This document shows, piece after piece, positions 3,505 through 54,251 of a stretch of DNA of 64,000 nucleotides (positions within the stretch are counted from its first letter, which is position 1; every line of letters starts with the position of its first letter). This DNA comes from an uncultured Pseudomonadales bacterium (lineage in GTDB: Bacteria; Patescibacteriota; Microgenomatia; UBA1400; MFAQ01). The stretch covers positions 6,378-70,377 of the forward strand of contig CAYSAM010000003.1 in NCBI GenBank assembly GCA_964429015.1, read 5' to 3'. Position numbers and translations under genes: made by a program. Below the pieces are notes generated by a model that was not told where the DNA came from, did not search any database, and saw nothing but the letters and a program-made list of their open reading frames with translations.

Positions 3505-4029
3505 ATGGCATATTCAGGCAACACCAACAATCGCGGTAACAATCAAAGACCAGTCTCAGATAATTTTGAGCAAGTTTTAGAAATTCGTCGCGTTAGCAAA
3601 AAAACCCAAGGCGGCACAAATGTTTCTTTTTCTGCCTTAGTGGTTACAGGTGACAAAAAGGGTAAAGTTGGTCTAGGTTTAGCCAAAGCCCCAAACGTTG
3701 CCGACGCTATCAAAAAGTCCATCCGTTTAGGTAATCGTGATTTGGTTCAGGTTCCTCTAAGTAACGGCACCATTCCTTACGAAACCAAAAGTAAGTATGG
3801 CGCCGCCAAGGTTCTCTTCCGCCCTGCTCCAAAAGGTACAGGTATCATTGCTGGTTCAGCCGTTCGTGCTGTAGTAGAAGCCGCAGGTATCACCGACATA
3901 GTTTGTAAAGTTCTCGGAACCAATAACAAAACTAGCAATGCTCGCGCTACTTTCAAAGCCCTCAAACAAATCGAAACACTCGCCAAAAAATACCAATTGC
4001 TCAAAGCCCTAAAAACAGCTAAGGCTTAA
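3505..4029 (+). CDS. rpsE: 30S ribosomal protein S5
   Basis: 174 aa ...VLEIRRVSKKTQGG...; L15 follows directly, so no rpmD (L30) is present. Confidence 0.93.
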   Translation: MAYSGNTNNRGNNQRPVSDNFEQVLEIRRVSKKTQGGTNVSFSALVVTGDKKGKVGLGLAKAPNVADAIKKSIRLGNRDLVQVPLSNGTIPYETKSKYGAAKVLFRPAPKGTGIIAGSAVRAVVEAAGITDIVCKVLGTNNKTSNARATFKALKQIETLAKKYQLLKALKTAKA

Positions 4030-4034
4030 ACAAC

Positions 4035-4484
4035 ATGAACACAATACTCACCAATCTTCAAAAAGTCACCAAAACAGGTAAAAAACGCCTAGGACGAGGA
4101 CGTGGTTCAGGTGTTGGTGGTCATACTGTTGGTCGTGGTCAAAAAGGTCAAAAGACTCGAGGAGTTATCCCCCTCTGGTTCGAAGGTGGACAGCTTCCTT
4201 TGGTCCGCAGAACTCCTTTTATCAAAGGTAAACACCGCTTCCAGGTAATTAACAACCAACCCACCACCGTCAACTTTGATCTTCTCAGTAAACACTTCGA
4301 GGATAAATCTGTGGTCGATAATCTCACTCTCGCCAAAGCCCTAAAGATCAGTGAAAAGGTCGCCAAAAACGGTTTTAAGGTCATTGCTACTGGCAAGCTC
4401 ACCAAGGCTCTAGAGGTCAAAGTAGCAGCTTCAGTAGGTGCCATCAAAGCCATCGAAGTTGCAGGCGGCTCCCACTCAATCTAA
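4035..4484 (+). CDS. rplO: 50S ribosomal protein L15
   Basis: 149 aa ...RLGRGRGSGVGGHTVGRGQKGQKTRG... Confidence 0.93.
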   Translation: MNTILTNLQKVTKTGKKRLGRGRGSGVGGHTVGRGQKGQKTRGVIPLWFEGGQLPLVRRTPFIKGKHRFQVINNQPTTVNFDLLSKHFEDKSVVDNLTLAKALKISEKVAKNGFKVIATGKLTKALEVKVAASVGAIKAIEVAGGSHSI

Positions 4485-4503: not shown

Positions 4504-4536
4504 AAAAAAGTCGCCGAAATGGCGGCTTTTTTTGTT
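4504..4536 (+). terminator. rho-independent terminator after rplO
   Basis: AAAAAAGTCGCC-GAAAT-GGCGGC followed by TTTTTTTGTTTTT. This is unexpected, since secY normally continues the operon. Confidence 0.7.
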
Positions 4537-4545
4537 TTTCTGGTT

Positions 4546-4622
4546 GTCATTCCCGACTCGATCGGGAATCCATCCCCATTTCGTCATTGCGAGGCTCGAC
4601 TTTAGGTCGACCGTGGCAATCC
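4546..4622. repeat. GTCAT-hairpin composite repeat element (family 1)
   Basis: GTC-ATTCCCGA-CTCGA-TCGGGAAT-CC (8-bp stem) followed by CGTCATTGCGAGGCTCGACTTTAGGTCGACCGTGGCAATCC. Related copies lie at 12100, 13056(rc), 27408, 32313, 34517, 43257 and 53706. Confidence 0.75.
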
Positions 4623-4644
4623 ACCTACCATCCTGAACCTTGCC

Positions 4645-4675
4645 CAAACACCCTATATTATGGTACAATTACCAT
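4645..4675 (+). promoter_or_regulatory. putative sigma70-like promoter (TTGCCC-18-TACAAT with TG extension)
   Basis: ttgcccaaacaccctatattatggtacaat; lies upstream of the 4713 TTG ORF. Confidence 0.35.
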
Positions 4676-4712
4676 CAGAAATCTTAAAATCCAAGAAAAA
4701 AAGAGGTGTAAA

Positions 4713-5345
4713 TTGACAACACAAAGCGAAAGAAGGAAAAGAACTACCCAAGCACTGCTGTTGGCCGCCCGCCAACTTTACAACGAATTAGATTTTTTTC
4801 AAAAGTACTTTACTTCCACAGTGATTTTAAACGGCTACGTTTGCTGGATGAACGACAGAAAAACAGGTTACTACAAGGTTAATGTCAACAGCGGCATTGT
4901 CCTTGAAGTTGATACCATTGAAGATACGACGGGTAAATACGTAAGGACAGAAGACCTTGTTTCGGTTTCCATGGCAATGGCAAACTTCATCAATATTTCC
5001 GGAACTATGGCAGGTTACTCGAGGCCTCTGCCTCAAATCAGCCACCAAGTACTGGATGGCATTGGTTGTCAGGTAACTACTCGTGGCGCGAACGAGACAG
5101 ATCTAACGCTTTATGCTTCTCACGATGTCTATCTAGAACTTGCCAAGTTGCATGTATTACACGAGCAAATATATTGGCCCCACAAACTCACCCATTACGC
5201 TCTAAAAGATGGCCGAACTCTGGCAATCACCATCGAGGAAAAAGAAGTTAACTTCGCAGTTTTGAGATCTCAATCCGTTCCAGTGAAAACAGGTATTCTT
5301 GAAATGCGCAACGCACTCATGGAATTTGTTCTTTACTGCAGTTAG
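4713..5345 (+). CDS. hypothetical protein (island ORF A; TTG start after SD AAGAGGTG)
   Basis: The long ORF from 4587 begins inside the repeat element. SD plus an in-frame TTG at 4713 is more plausible. No recognisable domain. Confidence 0.45.
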   Translation: MTTQSERRKRTTQALLLAARQLYNELDFFQKYFTSTVILNGYVCWMNDRKTGYYKVNVNSGIVLEVDTIEDTTGKYVRTEDLVSVSMAMANFINISGTMAGYSRPLPQISHQVLDGIGCQVTTRGANETDLTLYASHDVYLELAKLHVLHEQIYWPHKLTHYALKDGRTLAITIEEKEVNFAVLRSQSVPVKTGILEMRNALMEFVLYCS

Positions 5346-5356
5346 TTAGATACCAG

Positions 5357-5382
5357 CCCGCCTCATTGAGGCGGGTTCTTTT
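5357..5382 (+). terminator. rho-independent terminator
   Basis: CCCGCCTC-ATT-GAGGCGGG followed by TTCTTTT. Confidence 0.8.
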
Positions 5383-5444
5383 ATACCTACCATCATCCTT
5401 ACCAAAACACCCTCACGCCCGCAGGATTTTTTTGTGCCCAAATC

Positions 5445-5473
5445 TTGAATATTATCCTATATAGTGCTAAAAT
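5445..5473 (+). promoter_or_regulatory. sigma70-like promoter TTGAAT-17-TAAAAT with internal palindrome CTATATAG (paralogue A)
   Basis: ttgaat attatcctatatagtgc taaaat; an almost identical copy lies 700 bp downstream. Confidence 0.6.
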
Positions 5474-5519
5474 ACCCCAGATTTATCCAATCCACACTTT
5501 AAGTTAAAGGAGCTATCAC

Positions 5520-6083
5520 ATGCCGTCTGAATTCAAGAAGTTTTCACCTTACTTACTTTTGCTATTTATCTTCAGCGCAATCCTCGGTCTTTTCCTTCGT
5601 GGCAATCAGCTTGCCACCAGTATCTGGTTAGGCGTAGCCGTGGTTACCTGTATCTGCCTTATCGGTATTGAGTTCGGCTCACTTCTATTAGTCAAAAAAG
5701 ACAAAAATCTCTGGTACACAGAAACTCTCATTGCCGACAACAACGCAATCTTTGTCTTTGGCGAAGATGAACGGCACGAAGCTAAAGAGATTGTGGAGAA
5801 CGTTCGACGTTTATACAATGCTGGAGTACTATATCCTGTCTTAAATATTTTTGGAGTCGAAACGAGGGCTAACTTTTGGGGAAAAGACTTTTACTGCCCA
5901 TTTTCTACGACAGTATCTACATACCTTTGCATAACCCCAGACGGTGTTTTCTGTCGAAGTAACAGCGGGCTCGAAGTCCTGGAAAAGTTTGAGGCAATAA
6001 GTTTTGGATTCTTACAAGAACTCCACCGTGAGTTAGCACTTCAGGTTGAAAAACTCCCAGACCTTTCGGAAGATGAGTGGTAA
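5520..6083 (+). CDS. hypothetical membrane protein (2 N-terminal TM helices plus cytoplasmic domain; island ORF B)
   Basis: SD AAGGAG 9 nt upstream; hydrophobic segments LLLLFIFSAILGLF and IWLGVAVVTCICLIGI. Confidence 0.6.
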   Translation: MPSEFKKFSPYLLLLFIFSAILGLFLRGNQLATSIWLGVAVVTCICLIGIEFGSLLLVKKDKNLWYTETLIADNNAIFVFGEDERHEAKEIVENVRRLYNAGVLYPVLNIFGVETRANFWGKDFYCPFSTTVSTYLCITPDGVFCRSNSGLEVLEKFEAISFGFLQELHRELALQVEKLPDLSEDEW

Positions 6084-6099
6084 TTTGTTTATTTTCGTT

Positions 6100-6133
6100 C
6101 CCCGTCGCCATCATGGCCACGGGGAATTTTTTT
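6100..6133 (+). terminator. rho-independent terminator
   Basis: CCCCGTCGCC-ATCAT-GGCCACGGGG followed by AATTTTTTT. Confidence 0.7.
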
Positions 6134-6144
6134 ATGCCCAAAGA

Positions 6145-6173
6145 ATGAAAATAATCCTATATAGTGCTAAAAT
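6145..6173 (+). promoter_or_regulatory. paralogous promoter copy B (ATGAAA-17-TAAAAT, same ATCCTATATAGTGCTAAAATACCCCA core)
   Basis: Bases 6151-6179 are identical to 5451-5479. Confidence 0.55.
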
Positions 6174-6204
6174 ACCCCAAAATTCCTTAATAAAAGGAGG
6201 CTAT

Positions 6205-6753
6205 ATGCCTTTATTTAAATTCGCTCTAGAAGACTGGTACCGACTTCCAATTGGTGGCAAGTACGAGTGCTACGTTCGCCCAGACCGCCCATATACTATT
6301 ATCATCGACAATGAGCACAACAAAGTCGCTCTCACATTGGAAATCTCTTCAAACCCAAACTGGTATGTAGAAGAATTTACGAAACAAGTTGAGGCTGACA
6401 TGGTTCTTCCGCTAAATCAACATAACCTCTATTTTCTAGAAAGAGAAGCCCTGCTTGCAGAAGAAAGGCTCAATATCCACCACGATCATTTTTATGAAGA
6501 TGTTGGTGAATTGGAAGAAAAGAGATATCTATACGCCGCAATATTCGAAGTCTTTCTGTTCGATCGTCCCCCAGGTTATCTCGGCCTTCGTAGCCAGCAA
6601 GAATACTTGTTGGTTTACAACTCGATACCTTATCTTAGTTTCGATCCAAACAGTCTGGAGTATCAAAAATCGCTAAACATATTCACTGCCTTTACAGGTG
6701 CAACTGTTTGCAGAGTTGTAGATGTTACAGACTCGATTATTTCAGGTATATAA
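6205..6753 (+). CDS. hypothetical protein (island ORF C)
   Basis: SD AAGGAGG plus ATG at 6205. The long 6046 start overlaps the upstream gene and terminator. Confidence 0.6.
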   Translation: MPLFKFALEDWYRLPIGGKYECYVRPDRPYTIIIDNEHNKVALTLEISSNPNWYVEEFTKQVEADMVLPLNQHNLYFLEREALLAEERLNIHHDHFYEDVGELEEKRYLYAAIFEVFLFDRPPGYLGLRSQQEYLLVYNSIPYLSFDPNSLEYQKSLNIFTAFTGATVCRVVDVTDSIISGI

Positions 6754-6785
6754 TCAGCCCAGCACACGAAAATAAAGGAGAAAAA

Positions 6786-7115
6786 ATGGACATTGATTTT
6801 TCAGGTTCGCTTGAAAGACTCTTAAAAATAACCCGTTTTTTACATTCGATCATTGAGAATTTAGCTTTGGAAAAGCAAGAATCACCAAGTCTATACTTTG
6901 AGGCTAACAAGCTATACATTAACCTCAATCATCGACAAGGCTGGATTGTTGTCGATCCTGAAAATAATCGAGCTTATCATGTTTCGCGGGCCAAGGATCC
7001 AGCTACAACTCAACATCCTTGCTCACCATATTTGGCTGAATATATTTACAAGAGCCTGCACGACACCCTCATTGATCTCAATCTGCTTGTAGACTACAAC
7101 AATTTTGAAGGATAG
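6786..7115 (+). CDS. hypothetical protein (island ORF D, 109 aa)
   Basis: SD AAGGAG followed by ATG at 6786. Confidence 0.55.
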   Translation: MDIDFSGSLERLLKITRFLHSIIENLALEKQESPSLYFEANKLYINLNHRQGWIVVDPENNRAYHVSRAKDPATTQHPCSPYLAEYIYKSLHDTLIDLNLLVDYNNFEG

Positions 7116-7124
7116 CAACCATCA

Positions 7125-7151
7125 CACCCTCACATTCCGAGGGTGTTTTTA
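7125..7151 (+). terminator. rho-independent terminator
   Basis: CACCCTC-ACATTCC-GAGGGTG followed by TTTTT. Confidence 0.8.
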
Positions 7152-7159
7152 TATTCAAC

Positions 7160-7188
7160 TTGTTATATATCCCATAATGACATAAAAT
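7160..7188 (+). promoter_or_regulatory. sigma70-like promoter TTGTTA-17-TAAAAT containing the ATATCCCATAA motif
   Basis: ttgtta tatatcccataatgaca taaaat. Confidence 0.5.
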
Positions 7189-7236
7189 ATCAAAGCGTGC
7201 GTTGTCACTTTAAAATACCAAACACAGGAAGGTAAA

Positions 7237-7884
7237 ATGCTAAACGATTCTTTACGTCTCATGCTTGTTGAATCCACAATAAACGTCTTTAGGGTAGCTT
7301 TAAGTTCACCGTACTTCCTAAAGTCAATTGTGGATATCCCACACATAAACATAGGAAGCAACCTTTGTTTTTATGCAGAGGAGATAGGTGTTTATTGCTG
7401 CATCGACCTTAGTTTAAACGATATATATGTCTCACCAGAGCTAGTTGCTTTGGATTATCAAAATTACCCACAGGCTACCATCCAAGAACTTATTGTTTTG
7501 TCTCAAACACTTGTTCGCTTTGCAAAAAAAACAAGCTTGTGGTCAAGAATTTGTTCTTTATCTTGTCATATCAAAATTACTCCGGGAGAACAAGAACTTC
7601 TGCCACAAAGTTGTTATTTCGATAATGAAATTCTATTTTGGTATAGCCCCAAAATTAACCAGTACCTTAGAGTCGATTTTGTTTCATATAGCTTATTCCT
7701 TATGGATGAGCCTTCAGATCAGAGGAGTGCTTGGAAAGTCCCCTCAGAACAACATTTGCAAGCAGTTATCGAAGAGATTGTAAGTCACTATATATCAATT
7801 CATAAAAAAACAACAATGATTGCTGAGTATATGAATCAATACTTACAAAACAAAGATCTTAGTCAAAAGTTTTCCCTAAGTTAA
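7237..7884 (+). CDS. hypothetical protein (island ORF E, 215 aa)
   Basis: SD AGGAAGG; ORF. Confidence 0.55.
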   Translation: MLNDSLRLMLVESTINVFRVALSSPYFLKSIVDIPHINIGSNLCFYAEEIGVYCCIDLSLNDIYVSPELVALDYQNYPQATIQELIVLSQTLVRFAKKTSLWSRICSLSCHIKITPGEQELLPQSCYFDNEILFWYSPKINQYLRVDFVSYSLFLMDEPSDQRSAWKVPSEQHLQAVIEEIVSHYISIHKKTTMIAEYMNQYLQNKDLSQKFSLS

Positions 7885-7913
7885 AACTACTACTTGTGCA
7901 AACGGAGCTGCAA

Positions 7914-8465
7914 ATGGTCTCAATGGTGCAAAAAATTTTATTAGATCTAGCCAAAGAATTGGCTTTAAAAAAGCAAAAAGAAAGTTTGATAACCTGGGAT
8001 ATCTCCCCACATCTATCCCTCGGTATAGATCTTGTTGATGAAAAATTTTTTTACATTACCAAGCCAGGGAAAACAAAAATTAAGGATGAAGTCACTCTGG
8101 ATGACATCCTCATCGTTGCCTCCGCCATAAAGTTGTATTTAAAAAATGGCGCAGACAAATACAACATGGAGTTGGATTTGTATTACCAGAGTGGCGTCCG
8201 ATACTACGCTAACCTCGTCATCTTCTACGTTGAAAGCTGTGATGGTCCCAAAACAGACCGTTTCGTTATTGTTGGCAAACATATTGCCTTCAAAAACAGA
8301 TCTGGCTTCAACGTCTACCAGCATGTCCCGGATGGACCTGGAGTTTGGTATCAAGCTGGAGGTAAGCAGCTCGATATTGACAAAATAAAAAAGGTTGAGC
8401 AGATAAACCGCAGACGAGATCGCAGAGCGTTCGATCTCCTTCGAGAAACTGTGAAAATGTTATAG
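7914..8465 (+). CDS. hypothetical protein (island ORF F)
   Basis: SD GGAG 6 nt before the ATG at 7914. Confidence 0.5.
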   Translation: MVSMVQKILLDLAKELALKKQKESLITWDISPHLSLGIDLVDEKFFYITKPGKTKIKDEVTLDDILIVASAIKLYLKNGADKYNMELDLYYQSGVRYYANLVIFYVESCDGPKTDRFVIVGKHIAFKNRSGFNVYQHVPDGPGVWYQAGGKQLDIDKIKKVEQINRRRDRRAFDLLRETVKML

Positions 8466-8476
8466 GACAATTAAAT

Positions 8477-8507
8477 CATCTCGGCCATTTGGTCGGGATT
8501 TTTTGTC
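8477..8507 (+). terminator. putative terminator (7-bp stem with G-U pairs followed by T-run)
   Basis: CTCGGCC-ATTT-GGTCGGG followed by ATTTTTTG. Confidence 0.5.
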
Positions 8508-8532
8508 CATATCCCATAAAAAGATATATAAT
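8503..8532 (+). promoter_or_regulatory. sigma70-like promoter TTGTCC-18-TATAAT containing the ATATCCCATAA motif
   Basis: ttgtcc atatcccataaaaagata tataat; paralogous to the 7160 promoter. Confidence 0.55.
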
Positions 8533-8566
8533 ATGCCAGACTAAATACTAAAGGAGAACTTTTAAA

Positions 8567-9229
8567 ATGCACAAGAATCTCTATGACTATCTCAGAAATG
8601 CTGTCTTGTCAAAGGAGTTTTTATATCTCCTGGATGAATGTGGTGGTAAGTATCAAAATGGTTTTTTAACTTGGATCAAATTCCTTTTTGATGATGACGA
8701 ACTGGATGTTGACAAAGAAAGTATCGTCTATGCCATCGATATTAATCTGGAAAAAATTTACCTTCTCAACCACGAAAATCAGGTGCCTGGTCAAGGTAAG
8801 CTGGTAACAAGTCTAGAGTTGGCTGACGAGCTTTATAAAAGCATCTCATCTCGAATCTCAATAGTTAACGCTCTAAAGGGCAAAACCCTACCTTCGGTTA
8901 ATCTTTTTCAGTTTGTTCTTTTCTGCTTCGAAAATTTTGGACCGAGAAGTCTATTGGAAAAAGCTGGAGCCATTTTTGATGGTGACTGGTTCATTTGGCA
9001 AGATGAAAATGAAGAGCTTTTTTACGCCGTCAATCCCATCGTTAGTTCTGTCATGGCGCTTGTCAGTAAGGACGATAATCCAGCGATGGGGCGTGAGGTG
9101 CTAGATGAATTAGAAATCTCAAATATTCTAGTGGACATTTTTGAAAAGCTGGAAGAAGTCCGTTATATTAAAATTTTTAATTTTTCACCCAGTCACTATC
9201 TCCCGGGTCAACTGTTTACTATAAACTAA
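8567..9229 (+). CDS. hypothetical protein (island ORF G; weak SUKH/SMI1-KNR4-like resemblance)
   Basis: SD AAAGGAGA. The segment ...AGAIFDGDWFIWQDENEELFYAV... resembles SMI1/KNR4 immunity-type folds, but this is a low-confidence call. Confidence 0.55.
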   Translation: MHKNLYDYLRNAVLSKEFLYLLDECGGKYQNGFLTWIKFLFDDDELDVDKESIVYAIDINLEKIYLLNHENQVPGQGKLVTSLELADELYKSISSRISIVNALKGKTLPSVNLFQFVLFCFENFGPRSLLEKAGAIFDGDWFIWQDENEELFYAVNPIVSSVMALVSKDDNPAMGREVLDELEISNILVDIFEKLEEVRYIKIFNFSPSHYLPGQLFTIN

Positions 9230-9238
9230 AGAGTCATC

Positions 9239-9622
9239 ATGGATGAAAACGACGAAAAGAATCCACTAGAGGACCTAATACACATTATTCAAATTTTAAT
9301 GGAAGAGCCAGACAAGCTAGAAAAACTCAAAAAAATGGGGGCCAAAATCACCAGAGATTTTTTTGTGTTTACCTGTTTAGGCGGGTGTGGTTTGGTTTAT
9401 GCCATAAACGGAATTTCTGGTGAAGTTTATGACCTCAATGATCTAGAAAGCACACCAGAAACCGGAAGAGTAATAACAGACTCAGAGGAGATTGCATGCA
9501 TTATCGAAAGCCTTCTTGAGTTTGTTGAAGATACCCCAGATTTGTATGTGGTTGAAGAGTTTTTTATGGAACGCCTAAACCCCAAAAAATACATCCCTGG
9601 AAGTTGCTTTTCACCTTGCTAG
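9239..9622 (+). CDS. hypothetical acidic protein (island ORF H, 127 aa)
   Basis: Closely follows ORF G; SD AAGAG. Confidence 0.5.
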   Translation: MDENDEKNPLEDLIHIIQILMEEPDKLEKLKKMGAKITRDFFVFTCLGGCGLVYAINGISGEVYDLNDLESTPETGRVITDSEEIACIIESLLEFVEDTPDLYVVEEFFMERLNPKKYIPGSCFSPC

Positions 9623-9635
9623 CTTTTGATCACAG

Positions 9636-9659
9636 ACCCGCTTCTTAGCGGGTTTTTTA
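9636..9659 (+). terminator. rho-independent terminator
   Basis: ACCCGCT-TCTT-AGCGGGT followed by TTTTT. Confidence 0.8.
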
Positions 9660-9703
9660 ACGGACTCTTTCAAAAATCTCAAAAACTGTTAATATAAAAA
9701 TAT

Positions 9704-10720
9704 ATGGCAAGTGAAAATGAAGAATATTCCACACGACGAACAGTAGCCCCTCATGCCCCATCAAGGCAACCAAGGCGTGATTTTAAGAGTAGTTATCAAG
9801 ATGACGTTTACAATCCCTATTCTAATGTAAACTTAGGTGAGATTTCAGAAGTAAACCGAAAACCCAAAAAAGGCAGAATCAGAAGAAATGAACTAACCCC
9901 AACTGAAATTAATAATCTTTCAGAAGCAGACAAAAAAGCTAGAGAAAAATACCTAGCTGGCAATCTTGAGGAAATAAAACAATTATCATATGTTGAAACT
10001 AAGGGGAATTTTGGTAAGGTTGGTGAGGCACACACTGATGGTAAGCCTCCAGTTACTGAAGAGCGGGACGAAAAAATTACTGGTTTTAGCGTTGTTCAAT
10101 TAGAAAAAGAAGGAGATGTTTTAAGAGGTGATGAACAACGCATAGAAGGTATTGATAGTGGAAAATTGGGAACTGGAAAAAATCCAGATCAAGCAGATAT
10201 TGTCTACACCGAAAACGATCATCTTTTACCCATTAGTGACCGCGTGCAAAGTTTTGGTGATAGTCCGTTGCCTTTAGAAGATCAACATGCCGATAACGAT
10301 TATGAATTTGCAAAAAACGAAGACAGATTGATTGAGCCTGTTGATGCTACTCGAATAGAAGGTGATATTAACGTTGACTTTAACTTGGAATCAGTTTCAG
10401 ATAAAGTGGTACGTGAATTCTTAATTAAAAAAGGGTTAAGCTTTGTTGAAAATGTTTGGGAAAATTGCCGCTTTATTAATATATATTCAAAAAAAGATAG
10501 TTTTGATTTATACATAAATTTAAATGCTTATGGCAAAGGTTTTGTAGCTATGAAATTGGTTGACTTCTTTAATATGTGCAATTTGCCAGATTTTAATAAT
10601 GGTAATTCTCATTTGAAATCACCTGCGACCTTTGATAAAAAAGAAATATTGTCTACAATTAACAGAATTAAAGTTAACAATCGAGCAAATGGTGCCATAA
10701 AAAAATCAAGGCGCCATTGA
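9704..10720 (+). CDS. hypothetical protein with disordered, charged N-terminal half and C-terminal globular domain (island ORF I)
   Basis: 338-aa ORF; no recognisable domain. Confidence 0.5.
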   Translation: MASENEEYSTRRTVAPHAPSRQPRRDFKSSYQDDVYNPYSNVNLGEISEVNRKPKKGRIRRNELTPTEINNLSEADKKAREKYLAGNLEEIKQLSYVETKGNFGKVGEAHTDGKPPVTEERDEKITGFSVVQLEKEGDVLRGDEQRIEGIDSGKLGTGKNPDQADIVYTENDHLLPISDRVQSFGDSPLPLEDQHADNDYEFAKNEDRLIEPVDATRIEGDINVDFNLESVSDKVVREFLIKKGLSFVENVWENCRFINIYSKKDSFDLYINLNAYGKGFVAMKLVDFFNMCNLPDFNNGNSHLKSPATFDKKEILSTINRIKVNNRANGAIKKSRRH

Positions 10721-10767
10721 CAAGATAAAAGTTAATTAGACGATCGTATATGGTTGTTGTATAAGCG

Positions 10768-10796
10768 TTACACTTTTTATCTCCTTGATATAGAAT
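10768..10796 (+). promoter_or_regulatory. putative secY promoter TTACAC-17-TAGAAT; secY is probably leaderless or short-leadered
   Basis: The -10 ends 12 nt before the secY ATG, and there is no SD. Confidence 0.4.
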
Positions 10797-10808
10797 AGTA
10801 CTCACTCT

Positions 10809-12092
10809 ATGGAAAATATTTTTGCTCCACTGCGAGCCTTGTTTAAAATCAAAGATCTTCGTTCTCGTCTTATCTTTACTGCCGTCATCATTGCCATCTT
10901 TCGCTTTGTGGCTCATATTCCTACCCCAGGTATTAATGTCGCTGCACTACAACAACTTTTTGGTGGCAATGCCTTTCTCTCGCTACTAGACGTTTTTTCA
11001 GGTGGTACTCTTACCAATTTTTCCGTCATGGCTCTAGGGCTAAACCCCTACATCAACGCTTCTATAATTATTCAAATGCTTGGCATGGTCGTTCCCAAAC
11101 TCGAAGAACTTCAAAAAGAGGGGGACTATGGTCGCCAAAAATTAAACCAATACACCAGGCTACTTACCTTACCACTAAGCTTTTTGCAAGGTATTGCTCT
11201 CATAATGCTTTTAGCTAAGCAAGGTCTAACCACTACCGCCGACCCTCTCAAACTCGCCGCTATTATTTTTACTCTCTCCGCCGGCACCTCTTTTCTTATT
11301 TGGCTTGGTGAACAATTAAATGACTACGGTTTGGGAAATGGTATTAGTATGATTATTTTTGTTGGTATTGTTAGTCGTTTGCCAGTTAGTGCTGCTCAAG
11401 TTTTTTCCACTATCGACCCTTCCCAATACTTTACCTACCTAATTTTTCTTTTCTTTGCTGTCGTTGCCATTTATGCCATCATTCGTACAGGTGAGGCTGT
11501 CCGCGAGGTGCCAATTCAGTCCGCGCGCCGAGGTGCCAATACTTTTACCACCTCAGTTTCCAACCACCTACCTCTCAAATTAAATCAGGCAGGTGTCATC
11601 CCAATCATCTTTGCTGTTTCGTTTATGTTAATTCCCAATCTCTTAAGTCGTGTTTTAGCGGGTGTCAATCAGCCAAGTTTAGCCAGTTTTGCAAGTAATC
11701 TTAGTATCGCCCTAGCTCCAAATACTTTTTTGTATAACAGTATTTACTTTTGTTTAGTTGTTGCTTTCTGTTACTTTTATACTGCCGTTGTTTTTAATCC
11801 CGAAAAAATTGCCAAAGATCTTCGCACTTCAGGTTCTTTTGTTCCGGGCATAAGACCAGGTCAAAATACTGTTGAATATCTAAACTTTGTTCTCAATCGT
11901 ATTACCTTGGTTGGTGCCAGCTTCTTAGGATTAGTTGCCATTTTCCCCTCTATTATTTCTGGAATTACAGGTATAAGTTCTATCGCCATTGGAGGTACCG
12001 GCATTCTTATCGTTGTTTCCGTGGTTCTCGAAATTCTCAAAGCCGTCAACTCCCAGCTCTACATGTACAACTACGACAAATTTTTAGATTAA
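10809..12092 (+). CDS. secY: preprotein translocase subunit SecY
   Basis: 427 aa, 10 TM, ...[27 protein letters not shown]... Confidence 0.95.
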
Positions 12093-12157
12093 AATCATTG
12101 TCATTGCGAGGCACGTCTTTATGACAGCCGCAAAAATCTATATAAATTGAATACAAA

Positions 12158-12541
12158 ATGAAAACCATTTTAGTCGACGCTGCTGGAACACTTGTCGTCG
12201 ATGGTCAGGGAATATATCAGCCTCTTTATGACCTACTGGAAGAGTACCTAAACAAAAAGATTATTTTGTCCAATGCCAACGACGAACAATTGGTTGACTA
12301 TGGCATCGTTAACATGCCATATGAAGTCTTTACCTTAAAACACAATCCCAACAAAGACAATCCTGAGTATTTTAAAACAATGTTGAACCATTTTGGCTTA
12401 TCCGTTTCGGATGTCATTTATTTTGAGCATAGCCCCGAGGCTGTCGAAAGTGCCACTTCTCTAGGTATACTTTCTCATCACTACGACTCGGATAAAAAAG
12501 ATATTGAAAGTCTAAAAGTATTTCTAGATAAAAACCTTTAG
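12158..12541 (+). CDS. small HAD-superfamily-like hydrolase (degenerate motif I)
   Basis: MKTILVDAAGTLVVDG...; 127 aa. Confidence 0.4.
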   Translation: MKTILVDAAGTLVVDGQGIYQPLYDLLEEYLNKKIILSNANDEQLVDYGIVNMPYEVFTLKHNPNKDNPEYFKTMLNHFGLSVSDVIYFEHSPEAVESATSLGILSHHYDSDKKDIESLKVFLDKNL

Positions 12542-12544
12542 TTT

Positions 12545-12964
12545 TTAATCCCTCTCGGCTTCGCCGCTTCTCCCTTTGACAAGGGAGAGCAAAACACTTT
12601 TAACTTTTCCAAAATCTTTCAATACAGTCTCGTTTGTAAATCTGATAGTTTCAATTCCAATTTGTTTCAAAAATTCATCACGCTCCTTGTCGTAACCTAC
12701 TCTATCTTTGTGATACTCTCCATCAATTTCAATAGCCAAGTTTAATTCAGAACAATAAAAATCCAAAATAAATCTTCCAATCGGTTTCTGTCTGGTAAAT
12801 TTATATCCTGTCTGTTTTTTAGATAGTATCTTCTCCCAAACTAACACTTCTGCTTTTGTTGGTTTCTTTCTGTTAATTCTTGCTGCCCAGGTTAACTTTG
12901 GTAAATACTTTATTTGCCCATGTGTTTTGCTAATAACTTCAAAATCAATAGCTTTTTTCGTCAC
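12545..12964 (-). CDS. DUF559 / endonuclease-like (Vsr-fold) domain protein
   Basis: ...KKPTKAEVLVWEKILSKKQTGYKFTRQKPIGRFILDFYCSELNLAIEIDGEYH... Confidence 0.75.
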   Translation of the reverse strand: MTKKAIDFEVISKTHGQIKYLPKLTWAARINRKKPTKAEVLVWEKILSKKQTGYKFTRQKPIGRFILDFYCSELNLAIEIDGEYHKDRVGYDKERDEFLKQIGIETIRFTNETVLKDFGKVKSVLLSLVKGRSGEAERD

Positions 12965-12973
12965 AAATAATTG

Positions 12974-13122
12974 TAACGCCCTGCCCTGTCAAGGGAAGGG
13001 TTGGGGAAGGGTTTAAAAAGTGAGGGGGATTAAAAACATTAAGGCTTTATTCTGGATTCCGGATCAAGTCCGGAATGACAACTAACGCCCTGCCCTGTCA
13101 AGGGAAGGGTTGGGGAAGGGTT
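12974..13122. repeat. 40-bp perfect direct repeat (x2) flanking a family-1 GTCAT hairpin
   Basis: TAACGCCCTGCCCTGTCAAGGGAAGGGTTGGGGAAGGGTT occurs at 12974-13013 and 13083-13122. A related CCCTTTGACAAGGGAGAG lies at 12567-12590. Confidence 0.85.
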
Positions 13123-13140
13123 TTGGTATAAAATAAATCC

Positions 13141-27407: not shown

Positions 27408-27503
27408 GTCATGCCGGTCTTGATGAGTTTGTCCCGAGTACCCCCTCGGGAGCATCCAGTCCACGTCATTGCGATGCACGACTTTAGGTCGGCCGCGGCA
27501 ATC
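27408..27503. repeat. GTCAT-hairpin composite repeat element (family 1)
   Basis: GTCATGCCGGTCTTGATGAG...TCCCGAG-TACCCC-CTCGGGAG...CGTCATTGCGATGCACGACTTTAGGTCGGCCGCGGCAATCT. Confidence 0.75.
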
Positions 27504-32291: not shown

Positions 32292-32350
32292 GGGGCGAGG
32301 TTCCTCTCGCCCCCGTCATTGCGAGTCACGGCTTCAGGTCGGCCACGGTG
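32292..32350. repeat. perfect 8-bp hairpin GGGGCGAG-GTTCCT-CTCGCCCC followed by a family-1 GTCATTGCGAG element
   Basis: ggggcgaggttcctctcgcccccgtcattgcgagtcacggcttcaggtcggccacggtg. Confidence 0.7.
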
Positions 32351-32487
32351 CTTCTCAGTAGGTTTCTGCCTTTAGCCCCTGACCTAGATCCGTGGTAAAT
32401 GTCGAAATTAGTTTTTGTCGAAGACAAAATAACTTTCGACCAATCTATACAAACTACACTAAGTGAAAATAGTACTTAGTCAAAAAT

Positions 32488-34498: not shown

Positions 34499-35413
34499 AT
34501 GTCTTTATCCACTTCACGTCATTGCGAGTCACAAAGTGCCGAAGCAATCCACAAACAACCCACCCTCATCGTCTGCGGCACCACTTCCTCCGGCAAATCT
34601 GCCTACACATTCAAGTTAGCCAAAGAGTACAAAAAAGAAGTAAACATTCTCTCCGTCGATTCTCGTCAGTTTTATAAGGACATTCCCATAGTTTCAGGAC
34701 AAGACGACCTTTCAGAGTTACCATCAAACGTCACTCTTTTTGGTCAGGGTTTTTTAGAAGCAGATCAGGTTTCTAATATTAGCGATTTTCAAAAATACGC
34801 CAATCAAATTATCATCAAAACACAAAGTGAAAACAAAAAATTAATTATTGTTGGTGGCTCTGGACTTTATCTCAAAGCTATTACCGAAAACTTAGGTAAT
34901 GCCAAAGTCCCCCCAGACGCAATCTTTAGAAAGGAAGCTGAAAGTTACTCCGTATCTACTCTCCAAAATATTTTAAAAAGTTTGAACATTTCACTCTTTA
35001 ATTCATTAAATAACTCAGATATAAACAATCCTCGTCGCCTCATTCGCCATATCGAAATTTCCCAATCACCAAAAATGTCTCAAAAATCTACCATCTACCA
35101 TCTACCATCTACGACCTATTCCTGGCTCGGTCTCCGCAAATCCCCCGAAGCTCTTCTTCAATCTATCAAAGAACGCGTCGTCTTGCGTCTCAAAAATGGT
35201 GCTATAGAAGAAGTAGAGACTCTACAAAAAAAATATCCAAATCAATCTTTACCGATTTACAGCACTTTGGGTGTAAGCCAAATACAAAAATATCTTTGCC
35301 AAGAAATTACCAAAGAAGAACTAATCAAAAAATGGACAATCGATGATAATAACTATGCCAAACGCCAAATGGTCTGGTTCAAAAAACAACCTCAGATTGT
35401 TTGGTATGATTAA
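34499..35413 (+). CDS. miaA: tRNA dimethylallyltransferase
   Basis: ...TLIVCGTTSSGKSAYTFKLAKEY...ILSVDSRQFYKDIPIVSG.... The first ~18 codons are the translation of a family-1 repeat (34517-34550). Confidence 0.8.
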   Translation: MSLSTSRHCESQSAEAIHKQPTLIVCGTTSSGKSAYTFKLAKEYKKEVNILSVDSRQFYKDIPIVSGQDDLSELPSNVTLFGQGFLEADQVSNISDFQKYANQIIIKTQSENKKLIIVGGSGLYLKAITENLGNAKVPPDAIFRKEAESYSVSTLQNILKSLNISLFNSLNNSDINNPRRLIRHIEISQSPKMSQKSTIYHLPSTTYSWLGLRKSPEALLQSIKERVVLRLKNGAIEEVETLQKKYPNQSLPIYSTLGVSQIQKYLCQEITKEELIKKWTIDDNNYAKRQMVWFKKQPQIVWYD

Positions 35414-44631: not shown

Positions 44632-44705
44632 GGGCAGGCCCCCGTGCCTGCCCTTGTATATCCCCCATGCCTGCCCTTGTATATCCCCCATGCCTGCCCT
44701 TGAAC
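44628..44705. repeat. REP cluster downstream of RAYT: full palindrome GGGGCAGGCCCCCGTGCCTGCCC plus two tandem 23-bp half-site repeats (CCCATGCCTGCCCTTGTATATCC)
   Basis: Same family as 25749-25779. Confidence 0.8.
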
Positions 44706-44713
44706 TGCCCCCG

Positions 44714-53756: not shown

Positions 53757-54251
53757 ATGAAAAAAAAGAAGCATAGTCAAATTGATAAAATTTCTACCTG
53801 GCTCACCGAGTCTATAGGTACAAATACCTCTCTAGTCGTGCACACAATCCTATTTGTAGGGATTTTTTCACTGTCTTTATTTGGATTAACTATCGACAAA
53901 ATACTGCTCATTCTTACTACGGCCGTTTCCTTGGAGGCCATCTATCTAGCCATCTTTATCCAAATGACGGTTAACAAAACCACCGAGAGCTTGGCTAGTG
54001 TAGAAGAAAACATCGACGAAATCCAAGAGGACGTAGACGACATTCAGGAAGACGTCGAAGACATCCAAGAGGACGTAGACGACATTCAGGAGGATGTAGA
54101 CCATCTAGAAACAAACATCAAAGATATTTCTGAGGACTACATCGACGACGAGGTAGAGGAGAGTGATACCGTCAAAATCCTAAGCAATATTGAGTCACAA
54201 CTTAATTTACTCAAAGAGGAAATTGCCGAACTAAAAAAGAAAGCAAGTTAG
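53757..54251 (+). CDS. DUF1003-family membrane protein with acidic heptad tandem repeat
   Basis: 2 TM followed by ...IFIQMTVNKTTE... and a coiled coil. 21-nt tandem repeats at 54021-54110 encode (IQEDVDD)x4. Confidence 0.55.
   Translation: MKKKKHSQIDKISTWLTESIGTNTSLVVHTILFVGIFSLSLFGLTIDKILLILTTAVSLEAIYLAIFIQMTVNKTTESLASVEENIDEIQEDVDDIQEDVEDIQEDVDDIQEDVDHLETNIKDISEDYIDDEVEESDTVKILSNIESQLNLLKEEIAELKKKAS

Follow-up and report, generated by a model that had tools for sequence, protein, structure and literature searches.

The subject of this analysis is the junction between rplO and secY in a 64,000-nucleotide (nt) stretch of DNA from an uncultured bacterium (contig CAYSAM010000003.1; the whole stretch is referred to below as the window), where the S10-spc ribosomal gene cluster is interrupted by an island of nine open reading frames (ORFs). 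The window starts inside this cluster, with the genes for L16, L29, S17, L14, L24, L5, S14, S8, L6, L18, S5, and L15. The final gene of the block is rplO, which encodes ribosomal protein L15 (4035-4484, + strand) and has the S5 gene rpsE (3505-4029, + strand) as its upstream neighbor. ORFs A to I follow at 4713-10720, all on the + strand, and secY is located at 10809-12092 (+ strand). This order of rplO, a terminator, nine ORFs, and secY had been described in a first-pass annotation made from the sequence alone, and it was borne out. The canonical spc arrangement, with secY directly after rplO in one unit, is thus replaced here by a 6.3-kb gap and a terminator. The closest relatives of the encoded SecY are found in Candidatus Collierbacteria (Microgenomates, candidate phyla radiation or CPR), with the best genome matches being 91%, 90%, and 87% identical.

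The rplO-secY distance was measured in 61 genome loci retrieved with SecY, plus loci fetched later; for most genomes, coverage was limited to ±10 kb around secY. Every Collierbacteria locus spanning the junction (about 40) has a gap, ranging from 0.57 to 6.3 kb: six loci have 0.57-0.78 kb and most have 1.1-3.7 kb, with larger gaps in L002, L009, and L024 (4.0-5.1 kb), L062 (6.1 kb), L070 (4.3 kb), and L077 (3.5 kb); the range within L001-L031 is 0.57-5.1 kb. Outside Collierbacteria (L032-L061, including the Microgenomates L032 and L033 and members of other phyla), rplO and secY abut. The first-pass annotation had pictured small accessory genes that had colonized an essential operon; a recent colonization of this genome does not survive the comparison, since the split is present in all of the ~40 Collierbacteria loci and absent outside the clade. 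Instead, a site that is occupied and variable clade-wide points to an old gene-turnover hotspot.

The contents of these gaps are highly variable. All but three of the ~100 gap ORFs (~97% same-strand) are co-oriented with the operon, and clustering of their protein products revealed recurrent families that are combined differently from locus to locus, namely, Hfam, Ifam, M28-like, DUF2284-like, and c5-c11. The M28-peptidase-like protein has ~295 residues, and the DUF2284-like protein, of ~170 residues, is the only occupant of several minimal gaps; when representatives of the island families other than those in the window were compared to profile libraries, only the DUF2284-like and M28-like matches were obtained. 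The order Hfam array, M28-like, Ifam, secY recurs in several genomes. Another junction family, found in L062 (12625-14393), L020, L026, and L008, carries the motifs FxFGGGLxNGGLS, FDYMGSSEFEWG, and GWLELDNGFFFF and has no Pfam, NCBIfam, or PHROG match. A literature search found no description of the rplO-secY junction in CPR bacteria.

The closest long relative, L062, has flanks with 89-94% nucleotide identity to those of the window, yet the only part of the island common to both is the G-H block (promoter, G, and H; 8495-9620, + strand), at 88% nucleotide identity. This block holds ranks 2-3 of a ten-gene array in L062 versus ranks 7-8 here, and its breakpoints fall at gene boundaries. In comparison with L064, identities are 67% for H, 69% for C, 39% for D, and 25% for I. 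The sharing of a single block between relatives whose flanks are 89-94% identical agrees with the earlier view of an accreting array, whose genes are gained, lost, and reordered. In relatives, too, the site is occupied, which is one half of what had been set out as evidence against that view, but the genes found there are neither syntenic nor housekeeping. The junction therefore combines conserved core flanks with content that differs across relatives, which is the definition of a flexible island or turnover hotspot.

On the secY side of the junction, a conserved block that the window and L062 have in common starts 45 nt upstream of secY. This promoter block (10764-10808, + strand) contains the -10 element TAGAAT at 10791-10796, 12 nt before the ATG, and has no Shine-Dalgarno motif. 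In 34/34 Collierbacteria loci, the secY ATG is preceded, at a distance of 7-14 nt, by the end of a TANAAT hexamer; in about 32 of them, this hexamer has TG in front of it at the extended -10 position, and a Shine-Dalgarno-like motif was found upstream of secY in none of the 34. The secY promoter overlaps, in several relatives, with the stop codon of the gene in front of it. The conserved -10 element near the ATG, in conjunction with the missing Shine-Dalgarno motif, suggests that secY is probably transcribed from a promoter of its own, into an mRNA with little or no leader; the promoter that the first-pass annotation had assigned to secY is thereby supported, as judged from sequence conservation. 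Terminator hairpins are located directly 3' of rplO in about 12 relatives. We infer from these features that the clade ancestrally ends its ribosomal transcript after rplO and starts secY separately.

Within the island, terminators were predicted as a hairpin followed by a U-run, with z-scores computed against shuffles. All six predicted terminators, on the + strand, have energies of -13 to -21 kcal/mol and z-scores of -3 to -5.8: after rplO (4504-4532; -15.6 kcal/mol, z -3.0), A (5355-5377; -18 kcal/mol, z -5.8), B (6097-6127; -21 kcal/mol, z -5.3), D (7124-7146), F (8478-8499), and H (9634-9655; -14 kcal/mol, z -5.3). Since no hairpin-plus-U-run terminator was found 3' of C, E, G, or I, the island resolves into six units: A, B, C-D, E-F, G-H, and I. 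All six terminator sites had been named before, and hairpin energies and z-scores uphold each of them. The cassette layout proposed with them, in which every gene forms its own unit, is retained as far as it specifies an own promoter and an own terminator, but each unit contains one or two ORFs, giving six units and not nine.

Promoter-like sites accompany several of these units. The site for A (4640-4669, + strand) includes the extended -10 sequence TGGTACAAT at 4661-4669. A promoter module is present in two copies, one upstream of B (5426-5484, + strand; TTGAAT-17-TAAAAT with TG) and one upstream of C (6126-6184, + strand), which are 86% identical, confirming the duplication noted earlier; the module has no further copy in the window and none in 63 fetched loci. 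E and G have a shorter motif in common in their upstream regions. A generic sigma-70 scan returned 36 sites versus 30.6 expected, i.e., no overall enrichment, and weight is therefore placed only on the positions of the sites. A degenerate copy (73%) of the terminator of D, located at 5401-5433 (+ strand), is possibly the scar of an earlier cassette boundary.

The nine ORFs are real genes under purifying selection. Under a codon model fitted to 24 long ORFs from other parts of the window, all nine scored as positive, in the annotated frame only, although the scores of A-E (0.05-0.10) are below the core-gene mean of 0.20; the G+C content at third codon positions (GC3) of ORF I is 0.23. The ratio of nonsynonymous to synonymous substitution rates (dN/dS) was 0.24 for G and 0.14 for H versus L062, and 0.20 for C versus L064, compared to 0.03 for SecY and 0.01 for S5 versus L062. 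The dN of SecY versus L064 is only ~0.10, and protein-level evolution of the island genes is ~10-fold faster than that of their SecY and S5 neighbors. Independent assemblies from another sample contain copies of B (L069, 99.3%) and of C-D-E-F (L068, 98.8%), and the unbroken order rplO-island-secY recurs in L062, L063, L070, and L077.

Searches of Pfam, NCBIfam, PADLOC, and PHROGs with the nine ORFs gave no significant match; the single PADLOC hit, of G to Csx1, was weak and at chance level (E 0.005, 14.5 bits), and no PADLOC model thus assigns the island to a known anti-phage defense system. The first-pass annotation had called all nine unrecognizable orphans. This is accurate with respect to database families, but the proteins are not unrelated to each other, as D, E, G, H, and borderline A share a domain, and B, C, and I are not orphans either, with homologs in other island versions.

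The shared domain, Hfam, has ~85 residues. It occurs once in D (6786-7115, + strand; 109 amino acids [aa]), which shares a unit with C, and clearly in the second half of E (7237-7884, + strand; 215 aa), with a weak match in the first half. G (8567-9229, + strand; 220 aa) has two clear tandem copies, and H (9239-9622, + strand; 127 aa) has one, followed by the conserved C-terminal tail FMERLNPxxYxPGSCFSPC. G and H are paralogs (BLASTP E 1e-8), with G representing an internal duplication of an H-type domain and H being nearest to the second half of G. ORF A is borderline (E about 1e-4 before entering the model, with two weak domain matches), F is not significant (E 0.02-0.08), and B, C, and I are unlinked. 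In hhalign comparisons between families, only Hfam subgroups were linked to each other, leaving B, C, F, and I unlinked to Hfam. Iterated profile searches over the gap proteins converged on 42 proteins with 48 domains from 17 loci, and three to five Hfam genes stand in a row in L002, L064, and L062.

Hfam was seen at this junction only. When 1.84 billion cluster representatives were searched exhaustively with the profile, only 19 Hfam proteins came up, all related to the junction proteins. A word-indexed search found 4 proteins with G as the query, 16 with the Hfam alignment, and, with ORF I, that protein itself alone. A JGI metagenome scan with the H orthologs gave no match. Genomic context was checked for eleven Hfam proteins (the G protein of the window itself, P0001, is not on record in the index). 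For eight of them, secY flanks the array, with rplO present wherever the contig extended there; in L075, one of the eight, the final 80 bases comprise the secY promoter and the first SecY codons. The context in L068 consists of island genes alone, matching the island of the window, and L076 is too short to tell. Every informative context is thus between rplO and secY, and the 64-kb window has no Hfam copy outside the island.

Most island proteins are small, acidic, and cytoplasmic (F is basic and A near neutral), and the Hfam-type proteins have a conserved core with an apparently variable remainder. The H orthologs share the invariant C-terminal peptide FMxRLNPxxYxPGSCFSPC and two invariant CxxxC pairs at residues 46-50 and 123-127, a pattern which suggests a putative metal-binding site, for Zn or Fe-S, tying the H tail to the domain. 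Other Hfam subfamilies have a related carboxyl-end motif, ...F-S-x-S/C. Reading the conserved tail as part of a precursor of a ribosomally synthesized and post-translationally modified peptide was considered and rejected: no maturase was found, and a conserved tail on a variable body is the reverse of what such precursors show.

The AlphaFold2 model of H, built from an 18-sequence alignment with a predicted local distance difference test (pLDDT) score of 81.5, is a small alpha/beta domain composed of two helices, a four-stranded meander, a long helix, and a short helix. Foldseek searches with this model found nothing below E 0.8, and no SUKH structure, in the PDB, and nothing below E 0.07 among viral models. 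No SUKH-clan family was recovered when G and 31 Hfam members were compared to Pfam at E values up to 1, and the Hfam profile had no SUKH match among PDB sequences. The SUKH/SMI1-like hint that had been reported for G is therefore unsupported, by sequence as well as by fold.

Among the remaining proteins, ORF A (4713-5345, + strand; 210 aa, TTG start) had no close homolog in any search. ORF B (5520-6083, + strand; 187 aa) combines two N-terminal transmembrane segments, at about residues 7-32 and 29-60 by hydropathy, with a soluble domain that has a homolog in L067, in a protein without transmembrane segments; of the two-transmembrane-plus-PH-like layout suggested for it in the first-pass annotation, the transmembrane part is supported by hydropathy, and the PH-like part, for which Pfam gave no bPH match, is a candidate only. 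ORF C (6205-6753, + strand; 182 aa) has a conserved HHDH motif and orthologs in L064 (69% identity) and L065; the L064 ortholog is the first gene listed on its contig, for which coverage stops short of the rplO side. The single-sequence AlphaFold2 model of C had a pLDDT of 34 and was not used. ORF F (7896-8465, + strand; 189 aa from GTG) more likely starts at the ATG at 7914, which has a Shine-Dalgarno motif; it is an orphan with a very weakly Hfam-like N-terminus and without a homolog in any search. ORF I (9704-10720, + strand; 338 aa) defines Ifam, which, wherever present, is the last gene before secY. Its N-terminal two-thirds are low-complexity, charged, and gap-rich, and probably disordered, and it also contains a better-conserved block of ~110 residues. 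At its start, TGTTAATAT ends 8 nt before the ATG (window 9685-9706) with no Shine-Dalgarno motif; like that of secY, the mRNA of ORF I may lack a leader.

No integrase or transposase domain, tRNA, or Rfam family was found in the island region, and no terminal direct or inverted repeats flank the island; domain and tRNA scans thus agree with the earlier statement that none of the usual integration markers delimits it. With regard to an integrative element or prophage, the locus offers no integrase, no att or tRNA target, and no phage-like genes. Three IMG/VR scans produced no relatives; the sole hit, to ORF A, was antisense to an actinophage tape-measure gene and was discarded as spurious. The repeat that had been placed at the island edge is real: a REP-like intergenic element (family 1 in the first-pass annotation), with the core GTCATTGCGAGG...GGCAATC, lies after the rplO terminator at 4548-4621 and recurs in the window at 12099-12138, 13053-13077 (- strand), 27454-27503, 32304-32353, and 34507-34532. 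The copy at 12099-12138 sits directly 3' of secY. L062 lacks the repeat at the post-rplO site; L018 and L031 have similar elements following rplO.

Several features of the surrounding sequence were noted in addition. The secY-adk junction (window 12093-13140) is a second variable slot, which contains here an ORF for a 127-aa HAD-like protein (12158-12541) and a DUF559 endonuclease-like gene (12545-12964, - strand), followed by adk and map; in relatives, the slot contains EamA, GIY-YIG, or cupin genes or is empty, and in more distant Collierbacteria, secY adjoins adk. Just 3' of the DUF559 gene, perfect 41-nt direct repeats at 12974-13014 and 13083-13123 lie 109 nt apart, with the minus-strand first half of the REP-like element (13053-13077) between them; the arrangement was possibly left behind by a small mobile or homing element. 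Upstream of the island, S14 is of the short zinc type (61 aa). Elsewhere, three tandem 23-nt C-rich repeats occupy the gap between two ORFs at 44639-44712, and a 21-nt periodic repeat within an ORF at 54006-54110 encodes an acidic stretch.

Taken together, the preferred reading, to which a probability of roughly 0.6 is assigned, is that the insulated junction acts as a hotspot that works without an integrase, and in which cassettes made up of promoter, ORF, and terminator are duplicated, diverge, and change places. In Collierbacteria, the S10-spc transcript would end at the terminator after rplO, and secY would be read from its own extended -10 promoter as an mRNA that, with the -10 element only 7-14 nt from the ATG and no Shine-Dalgarno motif, would be leaderless or nearly so. 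Such uncoupling would leave a slot between two essential genes in which transcriptional insulation makes insertion safe. As the comparison of relatives shows, self-contained, nearly always co-oriented cassettes undergo duplication, divergence, loss, and exchange at this site, presumably by homologous or illegitimate recombination between island versions, with no involvement of an integrase, transposase, or tRNA. Hfam, the main occupant, grows in place by tandem duplication and domain fusion. As a guess, and a doubtful one, the Hfam proteins could be binding or neutralizing proteins of the immunity type, which would diversify under conflict with hosts, competitors, or phages. The insulated, transcribed gap between essential genes is possibly also a gene nursery, yielding new protein families in place.

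Several considerations weigh against this reading or parts of it. The promoters, terminators, and leaderless start are all deduced from sequence alone. The confinement of Hfam to one locus is biased by sampling, with coverage centered on the ±10 kb around secY and no complete Collierbacteria genome scanned. Low codon scores in A-E and the GC3 of I leave room for some horizontal acquisition. Among the window ORFs and recurrent-family representatives screened, no toxin, secretion, or defense gene was recognized in any island version, so the immunity guess draws only on general properties of the proteins: most are small and acidic, they include tandem paralogs, and they evolve fast. Finally, the strict secY-proximal confinement and the fixed order Hfam, M28-like, Ifam, secY fit a link to translation or secretion equally well.

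The last point leads to a different account, in which Hfam, Ifam, and the M28-like protein are clade-specific accessory factors of the ribosome or Sec translocon, kept beside secY by their function; they might, for instance, check or plug SecY from the cytoplasmic side or handle secreted substrates. Under this account, which is considered unlikely, the restriction of Hfam to the rplO-secY interval in all informative contexts would be expected, as would the position of Ifam, always last, with its stop codon touching or overlapping the secY promoter and without a terminator in between; the recurring order of M28-like, Ifam, and secY, the co-orientation with the flanks, and the invariant C-terminal peptide of the H subfamily, which resembles a docking motif, fit it as well. 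Yet content and copy number differ among close relatives, and L018, L019, L020, L027, and L028 have no Hfam or Ifam at the junction, carrying DUF2284-like or other genes instead, a variability that is not expected of a core partner of an essential machine. Moreover, tandem duplication without transposition would by itself account for single-locus confinement, and neither sequence nor fold resembles Syd, SecB, or other known Sec or ribosome factors. A related and rather improbable idea is that Hfam and Ifam, far from being passive cargo, are fast-evolving, clade-specific cytoplasmic proteins with the Sec translocon or ribosome as their target, for example, by binding the cytoplasmic face of SecY in the manner of E. 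coli Syd but with a fold unrelated to it. If true, this would explain the confinement of both families to the junction and make it an arms-race module around an essential machine in an episymbiotic bacterium.

The hotspot reading was also weighed against three other explanations. Immunity-gene arrays typically consist of tandem, rapidly diverging, small acidic paralogs, and the island could correspondingly be a set of orphan immunity genes of the SUKH/SMI1 type directed against polymorphic toxins, given its tandem, fast-diverging, mostly small acidic cytoplasmic paralogs, some fused into two-domain proteins, and its two-gene units C-D, E-F, and G-H. This explanation retains only a small chance, as 31 family members have no match to the SUKH clan or any other Pfam family at E values up to 1, and the ~40 island versions showed no recognizable toxin domain, Rhs, CdiA, or secretion gene in a screen of the window ORFs and representatives of the recurrent families; the association with polymorphic toxins that characterizes SUKH proteins was thus not seen in the versions inspected. 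A recently integrated mobile element or prophage remnant would account for the reduced codon scores of A-E, the low GC3 of I, and the REP-like repeats near both sides of the region, but this explanation is largely refuted, because there is no integrase, transposase, tRNA, flanking direct or inverted repeat, PHROG match, or IMG/VR relative, and because the same site is occupied throughout the clade. It is likewise very improbable that the ORFs are nonfunctional or the arrangement a metagenome mis-assembly. Although the genome is metagenome-assembled and A and F have no homolog in searches, the nine ORFs have a frame-specific coding signal, C, G, and H are under purifying selection, independent assemblies match B (L069) and C-D-E-F (L068) at 98.8-99.3%, and rplO-island-secY continuity is found in L062, L063, L070, and L077.

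The adjacency of rplO and secY is among the most conserved gene neighborhoods in bacteria and archaea, and the ribosomal-protein block supplies the core of the marker sets used in phylogenomics of uncultured lineages. Here, secY has become separate from the ribosomal operon across a whole CPR clade, probably with a leaderless-type promoter, and gene turnover in the slot so created proceeds without an integrase; flexible content can thus be carried even by the ribosomal cluster. Binning and synteny tools that assume a contiguous ribosomal block will meet a break at rplO-secY in this clade. The slot also contains a new family, Hfam, which is without a match in databases or solved structures. It provides a compact, comparable set of about 40 natural Hfam variants with no detectable relatives, which should be useful for understanding how small-genome symbionts generate and diversify lineage-specific proteins.

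In comparison with known systems, the locus retains parts of the canonical spc operon, which runs rplN ... rpmD-rplO-secY in E. coli and B. subtilis. The order up to rplO is preserved, as is secY-adk-map after the island, but rpmD (L30) is absent between rpsE and rplO (3505-4484), a terminator follows rplO, 0.6-6.3 kb of other genes intervene, and secY has its own -10 element without a Shine-Dalgarno motif. Integron arrays are similar in being linear series of co-oriented small cassettes whose order and content vary among relatives. Integron cassettes are usually promoterless, whereas the island cassettes have their own promoters and terminators; there is no IntI or other integrase domain and no attI or attC, and the cassette boundaries are formed by dissimilar terminator hairpins, with unrelated G+C-rich stems followed by U-runs, and then by promoter-like sites. 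SUKH/Imm immunity arrays likewise comprise tandem, small, mostly acidic, fast-diverging paralogs with occasional two-domain fusions; unlike them, the island has no SUKH/Imm sequence or fold match and no toxin gene recognized nearby, and several of its units have their own promoter and terminator. Flexible genomic islands and integration hotspots between core genes are known in E. coli, Prochlorococcus, Vibrio, and other bacteria, and the island shares with them its core flanks, relative-specific content, shuffled recurrent families, and cargo of unknown or accessory function. It differs from them in lacking an integrase, tRNA, or mobile-element genes, in interrupting the S10-spc-alpha ribosomal cluster at the rplO-secY junction, and in a dominant cargo family that is seen only at this site and was apparently generated in place.

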